DNA of 20,000 bases from the IMG/VR virus record IMGVR_UViG_3300005837_002722; one strand, written 5' to 3'. Below are positions 5,089 through 20,000 of the stretch, in pieces. This DNA is from an uncultured virus (IMG/VR IMGVR_UViG_3300005837_002722). Taxonomy: Duplodnaviria; Heunggongvirae; Uroviricota; Caudoviricetes. Below the pieces are notes generated by a model, which was not told the origin of the DNA, searched no databases, and saw nothing but the letters and a program-made list of their open reading frames with translations. Both the position numbers and the translations under genes were made by a program. Numbering within the stretch: the first letter of the stretch is position 1; each line of letters begins with the position of its first letter.

Positions 5089-5406
5089 CTATATTTTTTG
5101 CACTTCTACCTGTAATGGGTGTCCGCTGGCTCTTGCGAATGTAATCGCTTCAGCACATTTTTGTTCTGCTAGTTCATAGTAGTACTCGCCTACTATTGCT
5201 TTGTCTTCTTCGTGAATTTTGATTGTTAATGCTTTGCTTTGCTCGACTGTGTGGTGAAATAAACTTACTAATAGTTCTACAACAAAGTCCATAGGAGTGT
5301 AATCATCATTGTGCATGATTACTGCATACTTTGGAATTTTAATATTTGCTGGTTGATCTTTTACTACTGTCTCTGTAGTAGTTTGCGTCTGCGTATCTGT
5401 TGTCAT
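5089..5406 (-). CDS. clpS: ClpS N-degron adaptor
   Basis: YAVIMHNDDYTPMDFVVELL, IHEEDKAIVG, ELAEQK, GHPL. Confidence 0.95.
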   Translation of the reverse strand: MTTDTQTQTTTETVVKDQPANIKIPKYAVIMHNDDYTPMDFVVELLVSLFHHTVEQSKALTIKIHEEDKAIVGEYYYELAEQKCAEAITFARASGHPLQVEVQKI

Positions 5407-5423
5407 TTTTCCTATTACCTTTT

Positions 5424-5450
5424 GGGGGTACTGCCGAAGCAGTACCTCCC
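5424..5450 (-). other. Stable cUUCGg hairpin between hsp20 and clpS
   Basis: GGGAGGTACTGC-TTCG-GCAGTACCCCC; no U-tract follows on the minus strand. Confidence 0.7.
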
Positions 5451-5469
5451 GTTGACCCAGTTTTGTACT

Positions 5470-5907
5470 TTAGCCTTTGATAGCAATCTTTTTAGGTTGC
5501 TTCTCTTCTGGCACGTTGCGTACTAGCGAAACATTTAAGATACCATCTTTGAAAGATGAATCTTTTACTTCCATGTAGTCTGCAAGTTTAAAAGTACGTT
5601 TGAATTGACGTGTACCAATTCCCTTGTGTAGATAGTTAGCACTATCTTCTTTGTCGGAAATTTTACCTTCAATTGCTAATTCACCGTCATGTATTGTGAT
5701 CTCCAAATCGTCTTTGCTAAATCCAGCAACTGCTAAAGAGATTGTATACTCTTCTTTGTCGCTATCTTTTACAATGTTGTATGGAGGATAACCGCCATTT
5801 GTGTTTGGTGAATTTTCAAACATTCTATCCATGTCTTCGAACAGTCTGTCGAATCCTACGAATGAACGATGAAATGGGGTTAAGTCGAGAGTTGTTAGTC
5901 TTGTCAT
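5470..5907 (-). CDS. Small heat-shock protein Hsp20 (IbpA-like)
   Basis: GFDRLF, YPPYNI, LAVAGF, YLHKGI, F.R.F.L, PEEKQPKKIAI. Confidence 0.95.
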   Translation of the reverse strand: MTRLTTLDLTPFHRSFVGFDRLFEDMDRMFENSPNTNGGYPPYNIVKDSDKEEYTISLAVAGFSKDDLEITIHDGELAIEGKISDKEDSANYLHKGIGTRQFKRTFKLADYMEVKDSSFKDGILNVSLVRNVPEEKQPKKIAIKG

Positions 5908-5912
5908 TGTTT

Positions 5913-5957
5913 TCTCCTTTTAATAAGCAAGATTAATATTGGACCCTTTCGGCATCC
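5913..5957 (-). promoter_or_regulatory. ROSE-like RNA thermometer in the hsp20 leader
   Basis: UCUUGCUU-AUUAA-AAGGAGA hairpin sequesters the SD with a bulged G (U(U/C)GCU motif); upstream hairpin GGAUGCC-GAAA-GGGUCC. Confidence 0.75.
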
Positions 5958-5994
5958 TATACACACATGTTGCTTTACATGCATATATTCTCTT

Positions 5995-6023
5995 ATTGTA
6001 GTACATCATTAACACTTTGTCAA
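5995..6023 (-). promoter_or_regulatory. sigma70-type promoter TTGACA-N17-TACAAT for hsp20 (late-type ATAAATA also at 6040-6046)
   Basis: -35 at 6018-6023, -10 at 5995-6000. Confidence 0.8.
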
Positions 6024-6054
6024 CCATTTACTACAAAGTTATTTATCACAGATC

Positions 6055-6315
6055 TTAGTCAATTAAACCTTGATCACGTAATTTTTGTTGTTTCTTCTGC
6101 CAACGTCTAGTTGCTTGATTCTTTTCAAATCGCTTCTTGTCGCTGGGTTTTGTGTAATATTGACGGTCCCTTACTTCCTTAATGATGCCTTCATTATTCA
6201 TTAACTTTTTAAGTCTACGAATCGCTTTGTTTACATCATTGTTGCGAACTTCTACTGTGAGTCCACGTTTAGGACGGTCATCAAAGCGTGGTCTTTGTCT
6301 ATAGTTATTTTGCAC
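6055..6315 (-). CDS. rpsU: Ribosomal protein bS21
   Basis: VEVRNNDVNKAIRRLKK...GIIKEVRDRQYYTKPSDKKR. Confidence 0.93.
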   Translation of the reverse strand: MQNNYRQRPRFDDRPKRGLTVEVRNNDVNKAIRRLKKLMNNEGIIKEVRDRQYYTKPSDKKRFEKNQATRRWQKKQQKLRDQGLID

Positions 6316-6850
6316 GTTTTAATACTCCTAATAGTCTGTTTCCGGCAAACGAGGGTTTAGTTTCCCATTCACAATCTTCTACCATTTCTAGTATCTTAGT
6401 GCAAATAGCAAAACCGTTATCCTTGTGAGCCATCTCACGACCTCTAAATCGGATCATGATTCTAACCTTGTCACCGTCTTCGATGAACTCACGGATCTTC
6501 TTAAATTTGACTTCCATGTCGCTTTCACCTATCATAGGTCTAAACTGTATTTCATGGACGTCAACACGATTAGCACGAGCCTGTTTAGCACGTTCTTTTT
6601 CGCGTTTCTTTTGCTCATATTGATGTTTGCCAAACTCAATAATTTTGCAAACTGGTGGATCGGCTTTTTCTGTAACCAGAACTAAATCTAGTCCTTGCTC
6701 TTTTGCAAGGCTTACCGCACGGTCTTTATTCATTATACCTAGTTGCTCGCCATCTCGGCCAGTAACTCTTACTTCTCTGTGCTTAATAAAATGATTAATG
6801 GGCACACGAGGTTCGTGTTTTTTGTTAAACCTTTTCATTACTCTCAGCAT
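6305..6850 (-). CDS. infC: Translation initiation factor IF-3
   Basis: INHFIKHREVRV, GEQLGIM, GLDLVLV, PPVCKI, EIQFRP, GDKVR, FRGRE; GGAG SD before AUG. Confidence 0.96.
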   Translation of the reverse strand: MLRVMKRFNKKHEPRVPINHFIKHREVRVTGRDGEQLGIMNKDRAVSLAKEQGLDLVLVTEKADPPVCKIIEFGKHQYEQKKREKERAKQARANRVDVHEIQFRPMIGESDMEVKFKKIREFIEDGDKVRIMIRFRGREMAHKDNGFAICTKILEMVEDCEWETKPSFAGNRLLGVLKRAK

Positions 6851-8078
6851 GTTTCTCCGTGTTGTATAGTATCATTGGTTCTGTTTTCTCCTTTACATGT
6901 TCGCCGTTTACTACTACTTTGTTTGCACCTTGTAGTGCAATATCTGGTAGTACAAATTGTGTGCTTTTTAACACTGCTTCTACAATACTTCGCAGGCCTC
7001 TAGCACCTGTATTACTTTCAGATGCTTGTTCTGCAATAACATCTATAGCATCGTCAGTAAACTCTAGTTCAACACCATCTAATTTAAATAGGCGTTGATA
7101 TTGTAGTATAATACTATTTCGTGTATCTGTCAAGACTTTTCTTAAATCTTCTTTAGAAAGTGGGTGTAAACCTGTGATTACAGGAAGTCTACCTACTAGT
7201 TCTGGAATCAATCCGTATTTTACTAGATCATCTGGCTCAATATTATTCAAGATATCTTGGTCCATATGTGTCTTTTCTTTGGGTAGATCTTTACCAAAAC
7301 CAATACCAGCATTTGAATTAAGTCTACGACTAATTGTTTCTTCCATACCTACAAACGCACCGCCTACAATAAACAGTATGTCTGATGTGTCTACATCAAT
7401 TAGTTGCCCTTGTGGATGCTTTCTACCACCCTCTGGAGGTACTCTTACTTTTGTACCTTCAATAATTTTTAGCAGAGCCTGTTGCACACCTTCACCTGAT
7501 ACATCTCTAGTAATTGAAGTGCTTTCTGATTTACGACTCTTTTTATCAATCTCATCAATATATATGATACCACGTTGTGCGGCATTGATATCTCCGCCGG
7601 CTGTGTGTATCAATCTTACAATAACGTTTTCTACATCATCACCTACATAACCTGCTTCAGTAAGTGTAGTAGCATCAGCAATAGCAAATGGTACATCTAA
7701 ATAGTTTGCAATTGTTTTTGCCAGTAGTGTTTTACCAGAACCACTTGGTCCAAGCATTAATACATTTGACTTTTCAATTTCAACTTCATTTGGATCTTTG
7801 TTGTTGATGCGTTTATAATGATTGTATACTGCAATACTTAAAACTTCTTTAGCATCACTTTGTCCAACCACATATTTTTCTAAGTAATCGAATAATGCTT
7901 TAGGACTAGGTACTCCTTGATCTTTGCCTTTGTTAATGTGTATTTCTTTTACAATAATATCATGACAAAGGTCAACACATTCATTACAAATGTATACCTC
8001 TGGTCCTGCTATTAGTTTAGAAATTTCTTTTTGTGTTTTACCACAAAAACTACAACTTAGGTCTTGTACACTATTCAT
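6825..8078 (-). CDS. clpX: ClpX AAA+ unfoldase (likely start MNSVQDLSCSFCGK at 8078)
   Basis: C4 Zn domain CSFC...CNEC, Walker A GPSGSGKT, GYVG pore-1, DEIDK, RDVSGEGVQQ pore-2, RKH loop, IGF loop, TGARGLR. Confidence 0.98.
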   Translation of the reverse strand: MNSVQDLSCSFCGKTQKEISKLIAGPEVYICNECVDLCHDIIVKEIHINKGKDQGVPSPKALFDYLEKYVVGQSDAKEVLSIAVYNHYKRINNKDPNEVEIEKSNVLMLGPSGSGKTLLAKTIANYLDVPFAIADATTLTEAGYVGDDVENVIVRLIHTAGGDINAAQRGIIYIDEIDKKSRKSESTSITRDVSGEGVQQALLKIIEGTKVRVPPEGGRKHPQGQLIDVDTSDILFIVGGAFVGMEETISRRLNSNAGIGFGKDLPKEKTHMDQDILNNIEPDDLVKYGLIPELVGRLPVITGLHPLSKEDLRKVLTDTRNSIILQYQRLFKLDGVELEFTDDAIDVIAEQASESNTGARGLRSIVEAVLKSTQFVLPDIALQGANKVVVNGEHVKEKTEPMILYNTEKHAESNEKV

Positions 8079-8505
8079 TATCCATCTCCGTTCGTAGTGC
8101 ATACTCAACTAGGTCCATGCTTCTAAATATAGGACATCTACCTACTGTGTTCATAACTGTGAGTATTGATGTGTTTTTTTCTTGTTCACTGAATAACCAT
8201 GTGTTTGTATAATCTGCACGACTACATGCAAATGCAACTTCAATTGGATTGATCAAATCAAAGTTTACAAACACAATATCAGCATGACTGATGTTGGCTT
8301 GTGCCCAGGGAATTTCTTTTTCGCTGATCGGATTTGGTGTATAGTAATGACTTATTGCAATCTTTTGATAGACGTTTTCTGCAATATTAATTATACGTTG
8401 TTTCCATTCTTCGCTACCACCAAGGTAGTAAAAACGTAGTCCGTGATCTGGAAGGAATAAGTCAGGTGGAGTTATGTATAATACTTCTCCGGTTTTCTCA
8501 GTCAT
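8071..8505 (-). CDS. Hypothetical protein, 144 aa
   Basis: Overlaps clpX start, fits operon; no motif recognised. Confidence 0.75.
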   Translation of the reverse strand: MTEKTGEVLYITPPDLFLPDHGLRFYYLGGSEEWKQRIINIAENVYQKIAISHYYTPNPISEKEIPWAQANISHADIVFVNFDLINPIEVAFACSRADYTNTWLFSEQEKNTSILTVMNTVGRCPIFRSMDLVEYALRTEMDNE

Positions 8506-13373: not shown

Positions 13374-13853
13374 TTATCTAAGAAGGCGTGTATAACGTAA
13401 CTGTGTAATGCCTTTGAACAAGGCTGTATAGAATAGTGTACCAAGCAGTGTGTTTGTAAAGAAAGGTATGGCCGCTATATAACAGGCTATTAGTCCTTGA
13501 ACTGTGTAGGTATAATATCCTGCGGTCCATACGCCAAAGTTAGTAACTATAAAGAACGCAATTGATGCTGATATAGCATTAATCCATATGTTGTAACCTA
13601 GTGCAGTAAACATAACTGCAAATACAACTGACGCATATGTCCAAAACATAAAGCCATGCAGACCCCAATAGAGGTCACCTATGAACATTGCTCCTAGTGT
13701 AATTAGTGTTGCTTCTAGTTCTTGATCTTTAACAATTGTTGGTATAAAAACTGCTACTGCCAATAGTGGAGTAAAGTTTGGTGGGTGTGGTATAATTCGG
13801 CTTATACCTAGTAGAACTGCAAATCCTACAATCCATAATATTTTTTCTAACAT
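13374..13853 (-). CDS. Membrane transport protein (DUF6580 / ECF S-component-like), coupled to the TonB receptor
   Basis: SRIIPHPPNFTP, FFIVTNFGVW, CYIAAIPFF motifs; multiple TM; 1-nt overlap with upstream stop. Confidence 0.75.
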   Translation of the reverse strand: MLEKILWIVGFAVLLGISRIIPHPPNFTPLLAVAVFIPTIVKDQELEATLITLGAMFIGDLYWGLHGFMFWTYASVVFAVMFTALGYNIWINAISASIAFFIVTNFGVWTAGYYTYTVQGLIACYIAAIPFFTNTLLGTLFYTALFKGITQLRYTRLLR

Positions 13854-15550
13854 TAAAACGTTTTCTTAAATCCTATCTCAAAGTTTCTGCCCAATTGATT
13901 GTATCCATCTGGCTTTTCGTAATCTTCATCAAATACATTGTTGAGATTAGCAAATACTTTAAAACTGTTAATATCTTTGTTGTACTGTAGGTCCACTGTT
14001 GTTATAGCACTCATATCTTTTGTAGCATATGTACTAGCGTCTATGTCCTTGTGTTTCCCATAGTAGTTAACATTTACACTGTATTCATTATAGAATAACT
14101 TGGTGTTGTTTATTACTTTTGGTCTACGAAGTAATACATGTCCATCACCATCTTCGGAAATGTTGTAACTATATTTATTTTGAAACCATGTTCCTGTATA
14201 GTCAAATTCAAGACCTTTGATATTACTTGTTTTGGTATCGTTGACATATGTGTTGCTTGAATACTTTAGTAAGTTGTCTATTTCAGTTTTGTATACTGCA
14301 AAGTTATATAACCCCTTCTTATATCCTAGTTCTACTGTCTTTGACTCTTCAGGTATTAGTGTTGAGTTGCCAACAAAGCCATAATTGTTTTGTCCAAACA
14401 TTTCATATACAGTAGGTGCTTTGAATCCTGTTGAATAACTTAATCTTACACCATTGTTGTGTGCCGCGACTCTATATGTGTATATGTTATCAAATGTACT
14501 TGGAGTATCATATCTTAATCCAGTGTGCAACAAAACACCATTATCAAAAAGACTATCAAAGTTCATAAAGTATCCGTGATTGGTTCTTTCTTTATCTACA
14601 GAACTTGTATAACCATCAATGGCAGTAATAAAATCTACAGTAGATAGTTCTTGTTCTGTACCTAGTGTTAAATCATTCTTGTCTTTTGTAAATGTATGAG
14701 TCGCCAAAAATACTTTACTGTTGCTATTGTAGTTGTCCACTACACCATTCTTGTTGTATGATCTTTTGTGTGTGCTATTGTTAAACGAATACTCACTGTT
14801 ATTATCTTGCCAACTTATGTATTCGTTATTAAATTTCCAATCACTTGTGTAGTTTGCAAGGTCTGTGCTTGAATCTAAATTTGTATGATTGTCTGTTTGC
14901 ATGATTGCAGTTTTTAGTACGTGGCCATTTATAAAACTTTCTGTTTGTAAAATGTAGTCATCTGCTTTGTATGGATCTGTTTCTGTGCCATCTGCTATAC
15001 TAATGTTATCACTCGACTCTCCACTTAATCTTAGATCAACTGTGTGTTGGTTGTTGAACGTATGACCTAGTTTTATAGTTTTATGTTCTAGTCCGTTTGA
15101 ACCTCTGCTATATGTAATTGAATTTTCATCATTTGGATAAGTGATCATATTAATAACACCACCTATTGCATTTGGTCCATATACACTGCCCATTGGACCT
15201 TTGATGATTTCAAGTTGATCCATACTTGCAATATTGTGTTGTCCAATATCATCAACACCTGTTGGAGTGCTATGATCTTTTATAGGCATTCCATTTATTG
15301 TTAACAGTGTGTGATTTGAATTTGTCCCTCTTGTAAATGTACTGCTGACCTGTCCAGTTGTACCACTTGTAACTATGTTCACACTAGGTACTAGACGTAT
15401 GTCTTTTGGTTCTATTACATCGTAGGAGTATGTTTGGTGTTGAAGATCGCTTGAGTTTCTAAATGCGTATATTGTTAGTTCCAAAGGATCTGCTTGAGTT
15501 GGTGCAATTGTAGTCATTAGGAGCACCAGGACTAGCCAGAGTTTTTTCAT
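13853..15550 (-). CDS. TonB-dependent outer-membrane receptor, BtuB-like
   Basis: Signal peptide; plug motifs RGTNSNHTLLTING and EIIKGPMGSVYGPNAIGGVIN; TGFKAPT, LLRRP, NNVFDEDYE, C-terminal F. Confidence 0.9.
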   Translation of the reverse strand: MKKLWLVLVLLMTTIAPTQADPLELTIYAFRNSSDLQHQTYSYDVIEPKDIRLVPSVNIVTSGTTGQVSSTFTRGTNSNHTLLTINGMPIKDHSTPTGVDDIGQHNIASMDQLEIIKGPMGSVYGPNAIGGVINMITYPNDENSITYSRGSNGLEHKTIKLGHTFNNQHTVDLRLSGESSDNISIADGTETDPYKADDYILQTESFINGHVLKTAIMQTDNHTNLDSSTDLANYTSDWKFNNEYISWQDNNSEYSFNNSTHKRSYNKNGVVDNYNSNSKVFLATHTFTKDKNDLTLGTEQELSTVDFITAIDGYTSSVDKERTNHGYFMNFDSLFDNGVLLHTGLRYDTPSTFDNIYTYRVAAHNNGVRLSYSTGFKAPTVYEMFGQNNYGFVGNSTLIPEESKTVELGYKKGLYNFAVYKTEIDNLLKYSSNTYVNDTKTSNIKGLEFDYTGTWFQNKYSYNISEDGDGHVLLRRPKVINNTKLFYNEYSVNVNYYGKHKDIDASTYATKDMSAITTVDLQYNKDINSFKVFANLNNVFDEDYEKPDGYNQLGRNFEIGFKKTF

Positions 15551-17859: not shown

Positions 17860-17936
17860 TGGCCCGCTCGGCAGGATTCGAACCTGCAACCCTCAGTTTA
17901 GAAGACTGATGAACTATCCAGTTGTTCTACGAGCGG
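17860..17936 (-). tRNA. tRNA-Arg(UCU)
   Basis: CCGCTCG/CGAGCGG acceptor, anticodon arm TCAGT-CTTCTAA-ACTGA, GGTTCGAATCC, encoded CCA, A20. Confidence 0.95.
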
Positions 17937-17961
17937 TTTCTCCAGAGTGATTGCGAATTTT

Positions 17962-18038
17962 TGGCCTTCACGGGAGGACTCGAACCTCCGACCTTTGGTT
18001 CCGCAAACCAATGTTCTATCCGGCTGAACTACGTGAAG
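17962..18038 (-). tRNA. tRNA-Arg(GCG)
   Basis: CTTCACG/CGTGAAG acceptor, anticodon arm TTGGT-TTGCGGA-ACCAA, GGTTCGAGTCC, encoded CCA, A20. Confidence 0.93.
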
Positions 18039-18975: not shown

Positions 18976-19575
18976 CTAGTATTTTAGGATAAATTTTACA
19001 CCTGCTTGGTGAGTCGCATTTGAAAAGTCCTTGTCCATTGAACGTGTAATGCCAAGGTCCATATCAAAATTGCCTGCTACAGGTACAATAATACCAACGT
19101 CTACGGAAGTGTCACCACGTCCCCAGTCAAAATAATCAGTATCATTGCTGTCAACTTCTAGGCCAACTGCGCCATAAACGGCAGAACTACCAAGATCGTA
19201 CTCGGCACCTAGTGTAGGTTTAAGTGTGAGTTCGTTGTTGGTATAACTGTCGCCAGTAGCATAAGTCAACTTTGGAGTTGCATAGATAGAGAGCGATTCG
19301 CCTTCTACTGCTGGAAGTAGATCAAACTTACGAGCAAGACTGATTTCCCAATCAGTACCTGTTGCATTGTCAATCCATTTTACTCCCAACTGTACAGGAA
19401 GTTGGTCTGTAGGAGTTGTCAAAGAAAGTGAACGAACACCTTCGCTTGTTGATAATTCTACCCCACCGGCGGATCCATCTGCCGCAATCGATAAGGAAGT
19501 ATTATCAAAATCATCCGCCATAGCGGTTTGACCACAGATCGCTACAGCCGCGATCGCAATTAATAGTTTCTTCAT
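18976..19575 (-). CDS. Secreted, probable outer-membrane beta-barrel protein
   Basis: Signal peptide ending AMA, alternating amphipathic strands, C-terminal aromatic (AGVKFILKY). Confidence 0.7.
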   Translation of the reverse strand: MKKLLIAIAAVAICGQTAMADDFDNTSLSIAADGSAGGVELSTSEGVRSLSLTTPTDQLPVQLGVKWIDNATGTDWEISLARKFDLLPAVEGESLSIYATPKLTYATGDSYTNNELTLKPTLGAEYDLGSSAVYGAVGLEVDSNDTDYFDWGRGDTSVDVGIIVPVAGNFDMDLGITRSMDKDFSNATHQAGVKFILKY

Positions 19576-19606
19576 TATTATATTCTCCGATTTTTAATAT
19601 AAGAAT

Positions 19607-19777
19607 GCAACTTTTCTGTTGCCAGGTAAGTTGCCAACCCCGTTGAATTATGCCGCTAAGGCTAATCCTTCATCTGCAAAATTATCGTTTGCATTTATAG
19701 TTTTTGTTACGTTAACCGAGTTTCCACCGGACGGCTCCGCTTACCTATTAAACACTAGTCGATCCTAGTTCAGGCCC
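19607..19777 (-). ncRNA. ssrA: Two-piece (permuted) tmRNA, coding piece
   Basis: 5' GGGCCTGAACTAGGATCGAC; ATAAAT before resume codon; tag ANDNFADEGLALAA* (19692-19648); 3' CGGGGTTGGCAACTTACCTGGCAACAGAAAAGTTGC; 3' boundary approximate. Confidence 0.92.
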
Positions 19778-19963
19778 ATCATAAACACACGGTATAAACA
19801 CACGGTCTAACCATCTTCGTTCTTTCTTGTTATATGCTCTCTTAACCTTTTTACAAACTTTAGGTCTTTGAGTATAACTGTAGAACTTTCGTGCTTTGGT
19901 TAGTACATCGTATTCATCACCACTGTTCATGGGTTTGCGAGGTAATCTGTTTGTTCCTACCAT
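19748..19963 (-). CDS. Small basic protein encoded within the tmRNA intervening segment
   Basis: GGGAGA SD 5 nt before ATG; 17 K/R in the first 62 aa; GDEYDVLTKARKFY motif. Confidence 0.7.
   Translation of the reverse strand: MVGTNRLPRKPMNSGDEYDVLTKARKFYSYTQRPKVCKKVKRAYNKKERRWLDRVFIPCVYDGPELGSTSV
19781..19806. repeat. 13-bp perfect tandem duplication ATAAACACACGGT x2
   Basis: Copies at 19781-19793 and 19794-19806. Confidence 0.95.
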
Positions 19964-19983
19964 TTTTGTCTCCCATGTGTTTA

Positions 19984-20000
19984 TGGTGGACCTGCTGGGT
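19984..20000 (-). ncRNA. ssrA: Two-piece tmRNA, 3' end of acceptor piece (truncated by window)
   Basis: ...ACCCAG-CAGGTCC-ACCA; CAGGTCC pairs with GGGCCTG at 19777-19771 with G3:U70 and discriminator A (alanine identity). Confidence 0.88.

Follow-up and report, generated by a model that had tools for sequence, protein, structure and literature searches.

The window, meaning the whole stretch of 20,000 nt analysed here, appears to belong to a large marine phage; the runs that contain the locus are mostly marine. One end of it is occupied by a permuted tmRNA gene of the alpha type (minus strand, 20000-19604), in which the acceptor piece precedes the coding piece and the 5' side is clipped by the window end. 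The Rfam models alpha_tmRNA (82.3 bits, gathering cut-off 50) and tmRNA_permuted (70.5 bits, cut-off 47) both match the gene, each match being clipped by the window end, and the gene has G3.U70 in the acceptor stem, the CCA and a tag frame with an LAA end. The two pieces are separated by an intervening segment (IVS), and this spacer holds an open reading frame. The features of the locus are:

19984..20000, minus strand: 3' end of the tmRNA acceptor piece, with the end of the T-arm, the acceptor 3' strand (19994-19988), discriminator A (19987) and CCA (19986-19984); the remainder lies outside the window
19973..19985, minus strand: 5' arm of the IVS stem, a 13-bp stem that prolongs the acceptor stem; the CA of CCA belongs to it, as do the first two G of the SD (RNA fold)
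19778..19983, minus strand: IVS, 206 nt, a native hairpin with the inserted gene in its loop
19970..19974, minus strand: SD-like GGGAG, 6 nt ahead of the ATG and partly paired (sequence and RNA fold)
19748..19963, minus strand: spacer ORF, with 71 codons when the transcript is unprocessed, 62 of them before G1; unnamed small basic phage family (GDEYDxLT...YNKxxR)
19805..19939, minus strand: conserved core of the protein (residues 9-53), made up of a long basic helix and two short ones, entirely ahead of the cut
19781..19806, minus strand: 13-nt tandem duplication, private to the window copy, which puts the ORF into a different frame at G1
19780..19792, minus strand: 3' arm of the IVS stem, coding for the final residues of the ORF; the conserved TGAT at the end of the arm supplies a TGA stop in one frame out of three, which is not the frame used here
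19604..19777, minus strand: tmRNA coding piece, with G1 at 19777 as the predicted RNase P site; contains the TAA of the ORF (19750-19748)
19648..19692, minus strand: tmRNA tag reading frame, ANDNFADEGLALAA-stop
18976..19575, minus strand: next gene, a secreted beta-barrel-like protein (weak OMP_b-brl match, below cut-off)
6825..8108, minus strand: phage-encoded ClpX (context only)

At its two ends the IVS base-pairs with itself, which lengthens the acceptor stem by 13 bp (RNA fold, z -5.7), and the same stem is found in locus L003. In phage relatives the same arms enclose a short loop, and the window gene is an insertion into the loop of a native IVS hairpin. In 128 of 171 IVSs the last letters of the 3' arm are TGAT, owing to pairing with the ACCA end, and this puts a TGA stop on offer in one of the three frames. 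At least eight stem pairs were counted in 71 of 171 IVSs, an undercount since a single register was tried. One relative has a perfect sigma-70-type promoter ahead of its acceptor piece. The cut site at G1 was placed from the tRNA-like fold, and the enzyme that cuts there is, by the same fold, probably RNase P. Permuted tmRNA precursors are cut by tRNA-processing enzymes, and the IVS is lost (PMC11915505).

The spacer ORF starts at ATG 19963 and runs for 186 nt (62 codons) to G1; its first in-frame stop, TAA 19750-19748, ends 30 nt past G1. A preliminary description of this DNA had reported the 206-nt spacer, the CCA, G1, the SD, the start and the stop, and every one of these coordinates holds. 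Its SD-led reading needs one correction: GGGAG is present at 19974-19970, but part of it is paired in the IVS stem. The ClpX gene that it placed in the window was confirmed at 6825..8108, and the protein is indeed K/R-rich, with 17 K/R against 6 D/E among its 62 residues. The ORF is not due to chance, because only 112 of 20,000 Markov-simulated spacers contained an ATG in the first 45 nt and a frame open to the end, and because it has many homologues under purifying selection, which also bears out its coding conservation. That the predicted cut falls exactly after codon 62 is true of the window copy but is not conserved. The closest relatives, which do not have the 13-nt duplication, cross G1 in another frame and reach a stop 13 nt into the tmRNA. 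The duplication is found unchanged in contigs of two runs from two studies, one run possibly being the source of the window, and is truly present in the DNA. The codon-exact cut is incidental, because this private duplication moved the copy out of the frame of its relatives. In the two RNA runs examined, of six listed, no RNA contig covered the spacer ORF; these two runs contained relatives with other loops, and the result is not evidence of silence.

A profile search places the spacer protein in an unnamed, mostly viral family of 496 clusters at 50% identity. We aligned 147 sequences (3 from the first search, the window protein, and 143 of the best 150 plus P0007), with six long rows omitted. 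The window protein received no family name from Pfam, PHROGs or NCBIfam; the unnamed phrog_16066 is matched by 4 of 11 close relatives, and the neighbours of the window protein in the ESM Atlas are unnamed, mostly viral clusters. The predicted model (pLDDT 82) is a helical hairpin of two short helices and a long basic helix. A fold search against 48,161 solved chains gave a best Z of 4.2 and no chain at Z of 5 or more, an absence that excludes nothing, and a fold search of models returned one uncharacterised mycobacteriophage model (E 1.5). The preliminary description had seen no ArfA motif, and we likewise found no similarity to E. coli ArfA, the sole ArfA compared, by hhalign (probability 0.1%) or BLASTP. 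ArfA is absent among the 25 of 34 weak Pfam families listed, and it was not found in four genomes searched for comparison sequences. The KH motif, which binds the mRNA entry channel in ArfA/BrfA-type factors, is absent from the window protein and occurs anywhere in only 15 of 144 relatives. A profile search of solved structures gave no BrfA or ArfT match at E 10. A likeness to bS21 was rejected, as hhalign against the window's own bS21 gave a probability of 0.1%. Pooled pairwise dN/dS among the IVS copies, in which pairs are not independent, is 0.07 for type A (which includes the window), 0.13 for type B, 0.37 for type C and 0.07 for type F. Judged by its substitution pattern, the spacer ORF is a functional gene in its IVS position, under purifying selection. 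Our best guess at the function of this basic, helical protein of about 55 residues, drawn only from charge, composition and neighbours, is that it most likely binds RNA or the ribosome in host takeover; the guess is weak because other neighbours are DNA enzymes.

We next considered where copies of the family lie and how they end. A context-blind sample taken by coding motif yielded 118 family members among at least 120 viral loci: 113 have their own stop, 3 end in a tmRNA and 2 are truncated, so that 113 of 116 complete copies have their own stop. Copies of the tmRNA type make up 1 of 40 clusters at 85% identity in this sample. The best 80 of 417 loci of another subfamily all have their own stop, and so do all 12 clear family members among at least 120 loci from bacterial assemblies, where no tRNA was called and 3 weak matches were left out. 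Most copies are ordinary genes next to DNA polymerase I, nucleases or ribonucleotide reductase. In HMO-2011 and in cultured Arthrobacter and Mycobacterium phages the family member is an ordinary small gene, which in actinophages often stands behind DNA polymerase I or a nuclease; 39 Arthrobacter phage records list it as a hypothetical gene of the ordinary kind. Of the stand-alone copies, some are found in tRNA arrays, ahead of bS21 or ahead of DUF7230. The preliminary description expected homologues in ssrA IVSs or tRNA spacers with stops beyond the processing site; an IVS and tRNA-adjacent subset of this kind exists, but most homologues stand alone with their own stops, which it had named as the finding that would speak against it.

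Several loci were noted in passing. The own-stop copies L002 and L022 nest in the window's clade (support 100/98). The copy at L002:3001-3195 is far from any tmRNA, and its tail looks by eye like a decayed IVS arm and tmRNA 5' end, suggesting exit from a spacer. At L022:1501-1689, L023 and L026 an own-stop family gene lies just upstream of a permuted tmRNA with a short IVS, and the L023 coding piece seemingly has no tag frame. The family gene overlaps the start of a phage gene judged by eye to be bS21-like in L688 and L689, and follows what by eye are toxin-antitoxin-like gene pairs in the betaproteobacterial assemblies L516, L522, L539, L606 and L613. A C-terminal DGDNT common to four representatives was suspected to mark an RNA overlap and proved to be an ordinary protein end.

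Two scans, one of viral and one of metagenome sequences, were made for family members directly behind a tmRNA acceptor end, with the stop disregarded. The viral scan gave 19 loci, of which 18 are complete and 1 is truncated. In the metagenome scan 43 loci were found, 17 of them not of the family, 2 truncated and 24 complete. These loci represent 14 (viral) and 15 (metagenome) unique IVSs, partly common to both sets. None of the complete copies (18/18 and 24/24) has a stop before G1, in agreement with the earlier proposal that 5' maturation is expected to yield a non-stop RNA, as is the finding that close relatives end inside a tRNA-Ser. All 42 of 42 complete IVS copies of the family are thus non-stop; both non-stop frames are used, the TGA frame never. 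Frame shifts within lineages, namely the window duplication and type B versus types C/F/H, likewise avoided the TGA frame. A weak tree of 86 cores from 44 columns has seven changes of the tmRNA label, and a constraint placing the tmRNA-type copies in one clade was rejected (p-AU 0.021), in a test whose group was enlarged with nested rows after the tree had been seen. The non-stop IVS copies appear to come from at least three lineages, perhaps five to seven by junction and frame. L001 and L006, which belong to the window's clade (100/98), stop 14 nt into a tRNA-Ser, and the clade is thus non-stop at two different RNase P-type sites, in tmRNA and in tRNA-Ser. Judged from peptides alone, the tails of 150 representatives include 7 that resemble a tmRNA 5' end and 2 that resemble a tRNA; the peptide tail of P0046 matches tRNA-Gly genes. 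In P0160 and P0161 (clade A) the spacer ORF runs in frame through the coding piece into the tag, so that the unprocessed transcript encodes a tagged protein; this may be chance.

The gene moves together with its spacer. IVS cassettes that are 99-100% identical stand ahead of coding pieces that are mostly 58-92% identical and have different tags. A contig from an RNA run agrees with the window at 299 of 304 positions across the coding piece and next gene, but where the window has the ORF this contig has a loop of 8 nt. This near-twin with an empty loop, and the identical cassettes before differing coding pieces, indicate that the cassette is dispensable in close kin and moves as a unit. The 42 non-stop copies therefore represent far fewer independent events.

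As a control we examined other passengers of the IVS, using at least 240 viral loci with an alpha-type acceptor end, in which 191 unique IVSs were delimited and no G1 was found at 29 loci. With a threshold of at least 27 codons and at least 72% of the spacer filled, the 191 unique IVSs contain 38 ORFs in 24 families, some of them singletons from heuristic calling that are possibly not genes. The 23 families unrelated to the window gene comprise 10 that are non-stop, 1 mixed, 6 with their own stop and 6 that stop at the TGA of the arm. Among the families reaching the arm, 11 are non-stop and 6 stop at TGA, as random choice of frame would give, and the unrelated passengers include hydrophobic peptides without a link to translation. 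Against this background of 11/23, the probability that the window family would be non-stop throughout is 0.14, 0.044 or 0.016 for 3, 5 or 7 independent events. ORFs of other families run into tRNA 5' ends at 4 of 18 junctions in these phages, by a heuristic count. The tmRNA spacer as a gene slot, half of whose passengers are non-stop, is a solid result. In the loci L052-L453, phage tmRNA IVSs contain small ORFs of at least 23 other families, several of them conserved across loci (L082/L108/L398, L099/L104 and L055/L056/L125/L351 are examples), and many other IVSs, of 60-140 nt, contain structured non-coding inserts.

We consider it rather probable that the window gene is a mobile cassette in a swappable slot, and that its non-stop state is a tolerated by-product and not a selected sensor. 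The loop of the IVS hairpin would serve as the slot for small genes, both slot and shuffling being observed; slot genes would ride on a strongly transcribed precursor, and recombination within the conserved tRNA-like arms may swap passengers from phage to phage. The family would have entered the slot several times, its variable tail being clipped and its frame continuing through the 3' arm, to end in the arm if it is the TGA frame and otherwise 13-108 nt inside the coding piece. Ribosomes that load on a precursor not yet folded or cut should make a stop-terminated protein. Formation of the stem would partly mask the SD, and cutting at G1 would leave a non-stop message, so that by established tmRNA biology any further product would be tagged and degraded, as non-stop products are (PMC4131195, PMC8012679). 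Tagging of the predicted non-stop spacer product by tmRNA is probable, and the non-stop state probably damps expression. What speaks against the by-product reading is that none of the 42 complete IVS copies, from what appear to be at least three lineages, uses the TGA frame, that frame shifts within lineages also avoided it, and that the window's clade is non-stop at two RNase P-type sites.

The same uniformity across two frames, together with the rejection of a single clade, is what selection for feedback would produce. The gene would then be kept non-stop so that tagging by tmRNA and ClpXP keep the protein scarce as long as trans-translation works, and the protein, which need not be a rescue factor, would accumulate if trans-translation fails or saturates late in infection. 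The sister copies ending in tRNA-Ser, the peptide tails that read into tmRNA (7/150) or tRNA (2/150), the reading of P0160 and P0161 into the tag, the ClpX gene in the window and the position of the whole conserved core ahead of the cut, as for ArfA and BrfA (PMC8012679), all fit this account. We nevertheless regard it as rather unlikely: most family copies do without such control, 11 of 23 unrelated passenger families are likewise non-stop, the lineage-level p reaches only 0.14 to 0.016, cassette copies are not independent, and the tree comes from 44 columns with a test group widened after it was seen. The reading in the preliminary description is thus supported in part. A built-in, arfA-like rescue sensor is possible, the uniform non-stop state of the family in the slot being in its favour; against it stand the own stops of most homologues, the non-stop default of the slot and the lack of likeness to E. 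coli ArfA, and the codon-exact junction is incidental. It is very improbable that the protein is a new phage release-factor-dependent ribosome-rescue factor of the ArfA/BrfA/ArfT kind. Its size, charge and non-stop layout would agree with one, some stand-alone copies lie in tRNA arrays, ahead of bS21 or ahead of DUF7230, and the known members are themselves unrelated in sequence (PMC8012679), so missing similarity does not exclude it; set against this are the negative hhalign, BLASTP and Pfam comparisons, the scarcity of the KH motif, the predicted helical hairpin, the ordinary genomic settings of most copies and the prevalence of own stops in the family (113/116, all of the best 80 of 417, and 12/12). 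Almost as improbable is the idea that the spacer RNA is excised and degraded untranslated, as for the 23S rRNA IVS ORF of Coxiella (PMC4990558), the ORF being a recently captured passenger. The partly paired SD and the two RNA runs with no contig over the ORF, which contained relatives with other loops, would suit it, but copies that share one insertion junction are under purifying selection (dN/dS 0.07 in type A, 0.13 in type B) and the SD and start codon are retained at the 5' arm.

We compared the locus with known systems. Two-piece tmRNA genes have been described in marine phages (PMC9004378), and the permuted genes known so far (Rfam RF01849 and RF04321; marine phage Melnitz, PMC9004378) resemble the window's in piece order, G3.U70, LAA tag end and marine phage carrier; the window differs in that its 206-nt IVS contains a protein gene. 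As IVS contents, the available text of PMC11915505 names a tRNA-Ala gene and a repetitive element, and no mention of a protein gene was found in it. In the literature searched, no report of protein genes in tmRNA IVSs was found. Hudson, Lau and Williams proposed that non-stop mRNAs arise where coding sequences overlap t(m)RNA genes (PMC4131195). In their case of Carsonella smpB over ssrA, as in the window, the stop lies in the downstream t(m)RNA and maturation should leave a non-stop message (PMC4131195). Such overlaps concern about 1 in 15,000 bacterial Pfam coding sequences and none is internal to a valid t(m)RNA gene, whereas the window gene is nested inside a permuted gene, phage-borne and recurrent (PMC4131195). 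E. coli arfA and B. subtilis brfA are alike in encoding a small basic protein with its conserved part before the truncation point of a predicted non-stop message (PMC8012679). They are truncated by RNase III or a terminator (PMC8012679), the window ORF by predicted tRNA-type processing, and the window family, without sequence similarity to ArfA, with a KH motif in few members and mostly not non-stop, is a candidate by its layout. The ORFs in 23S rRNA IVSs (S23p) also lie in a hairpin cut from a stable-RNA precursor and move horizontally (PMC4990558). That IVS is excised by RNase III and its ORF is decaying and apparently untranslated (PMC4990558), whereas the window ORF is under purifying selection and the tmRNA slot is used by many unrelated ORF families.

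Even on a cautious reading, the discarded spacer of the phage two-piece tmRNA is a shuttle site for small genes, which annotation pipelines miss or end wrongly. About half of the spacer genes should be natural substrates of trans-translation. The spacer gives a first testable handle on the reason why marine phages have tmRNA and ClpX, as well as on a phage protein family that is abundant but has no name. Selection for the non-stop state, if it exists, would represent a new route to arfA-type feedback, through tRNA-type processing and in a virus. A wider conjecture, which we hold to be doubtful, is that marine phages repeatedly put one small basic protein family ahead of RNase P sites, in the tmRNA spacer and before tRNAs. 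Maturation of the rescue RNA would then create a non-stop message that the rescue RNA itself tags, so that the gene would be regulated by its enclosing RNA and its product would act on translation when trans-translation fails; a second component would be DUF7230, which in some phages has its KH-bearing end right against tRNA-Ala.

The DUF7230 gene (PF23876), on which no literature was found, often overlaps the end of stand-alone family copies and usually has GYxKH at its end; L637 is a further locus with a DUF7230 gene by a family copy. It runs into a tRNA-Ala 3 nt after KH in L638:946-1071 and L679:949-1065, and into an odd tRNA-Ala-like element directly after KH in L183 and L273, whose peptide tail recurs in L676:943-1083 and L680:940-1083. 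Most of the 18 unique DUF7230 junctions listed have their own stops. A comparison of DUF7230 with ArfA gave no hhalign match. DUF7230 was not found in five records with IVS, tRNA- or tmRNA-adjacent family copies, four of which are fragments and for which the search control gave no signal. By layout, DUF7230 is a better candidate for an ArfA-like protein than the spacer protein. The remainder of the window contains a host-like translation and proteolysis cluster at 5089-8108 (ClpS, a small heat-shock protein, bS21, IF3 and ClpX) and a GMP reductase gene. Two tRNA-Arg genes, with anticodons TCT and the unusual GCG, lie at 17860-18038. At 13374-15550 a BtuB-like TonB-dependent receptor (below cut-off) has a small membrane protein next after it, and the two may form a cobalamin uptake module.
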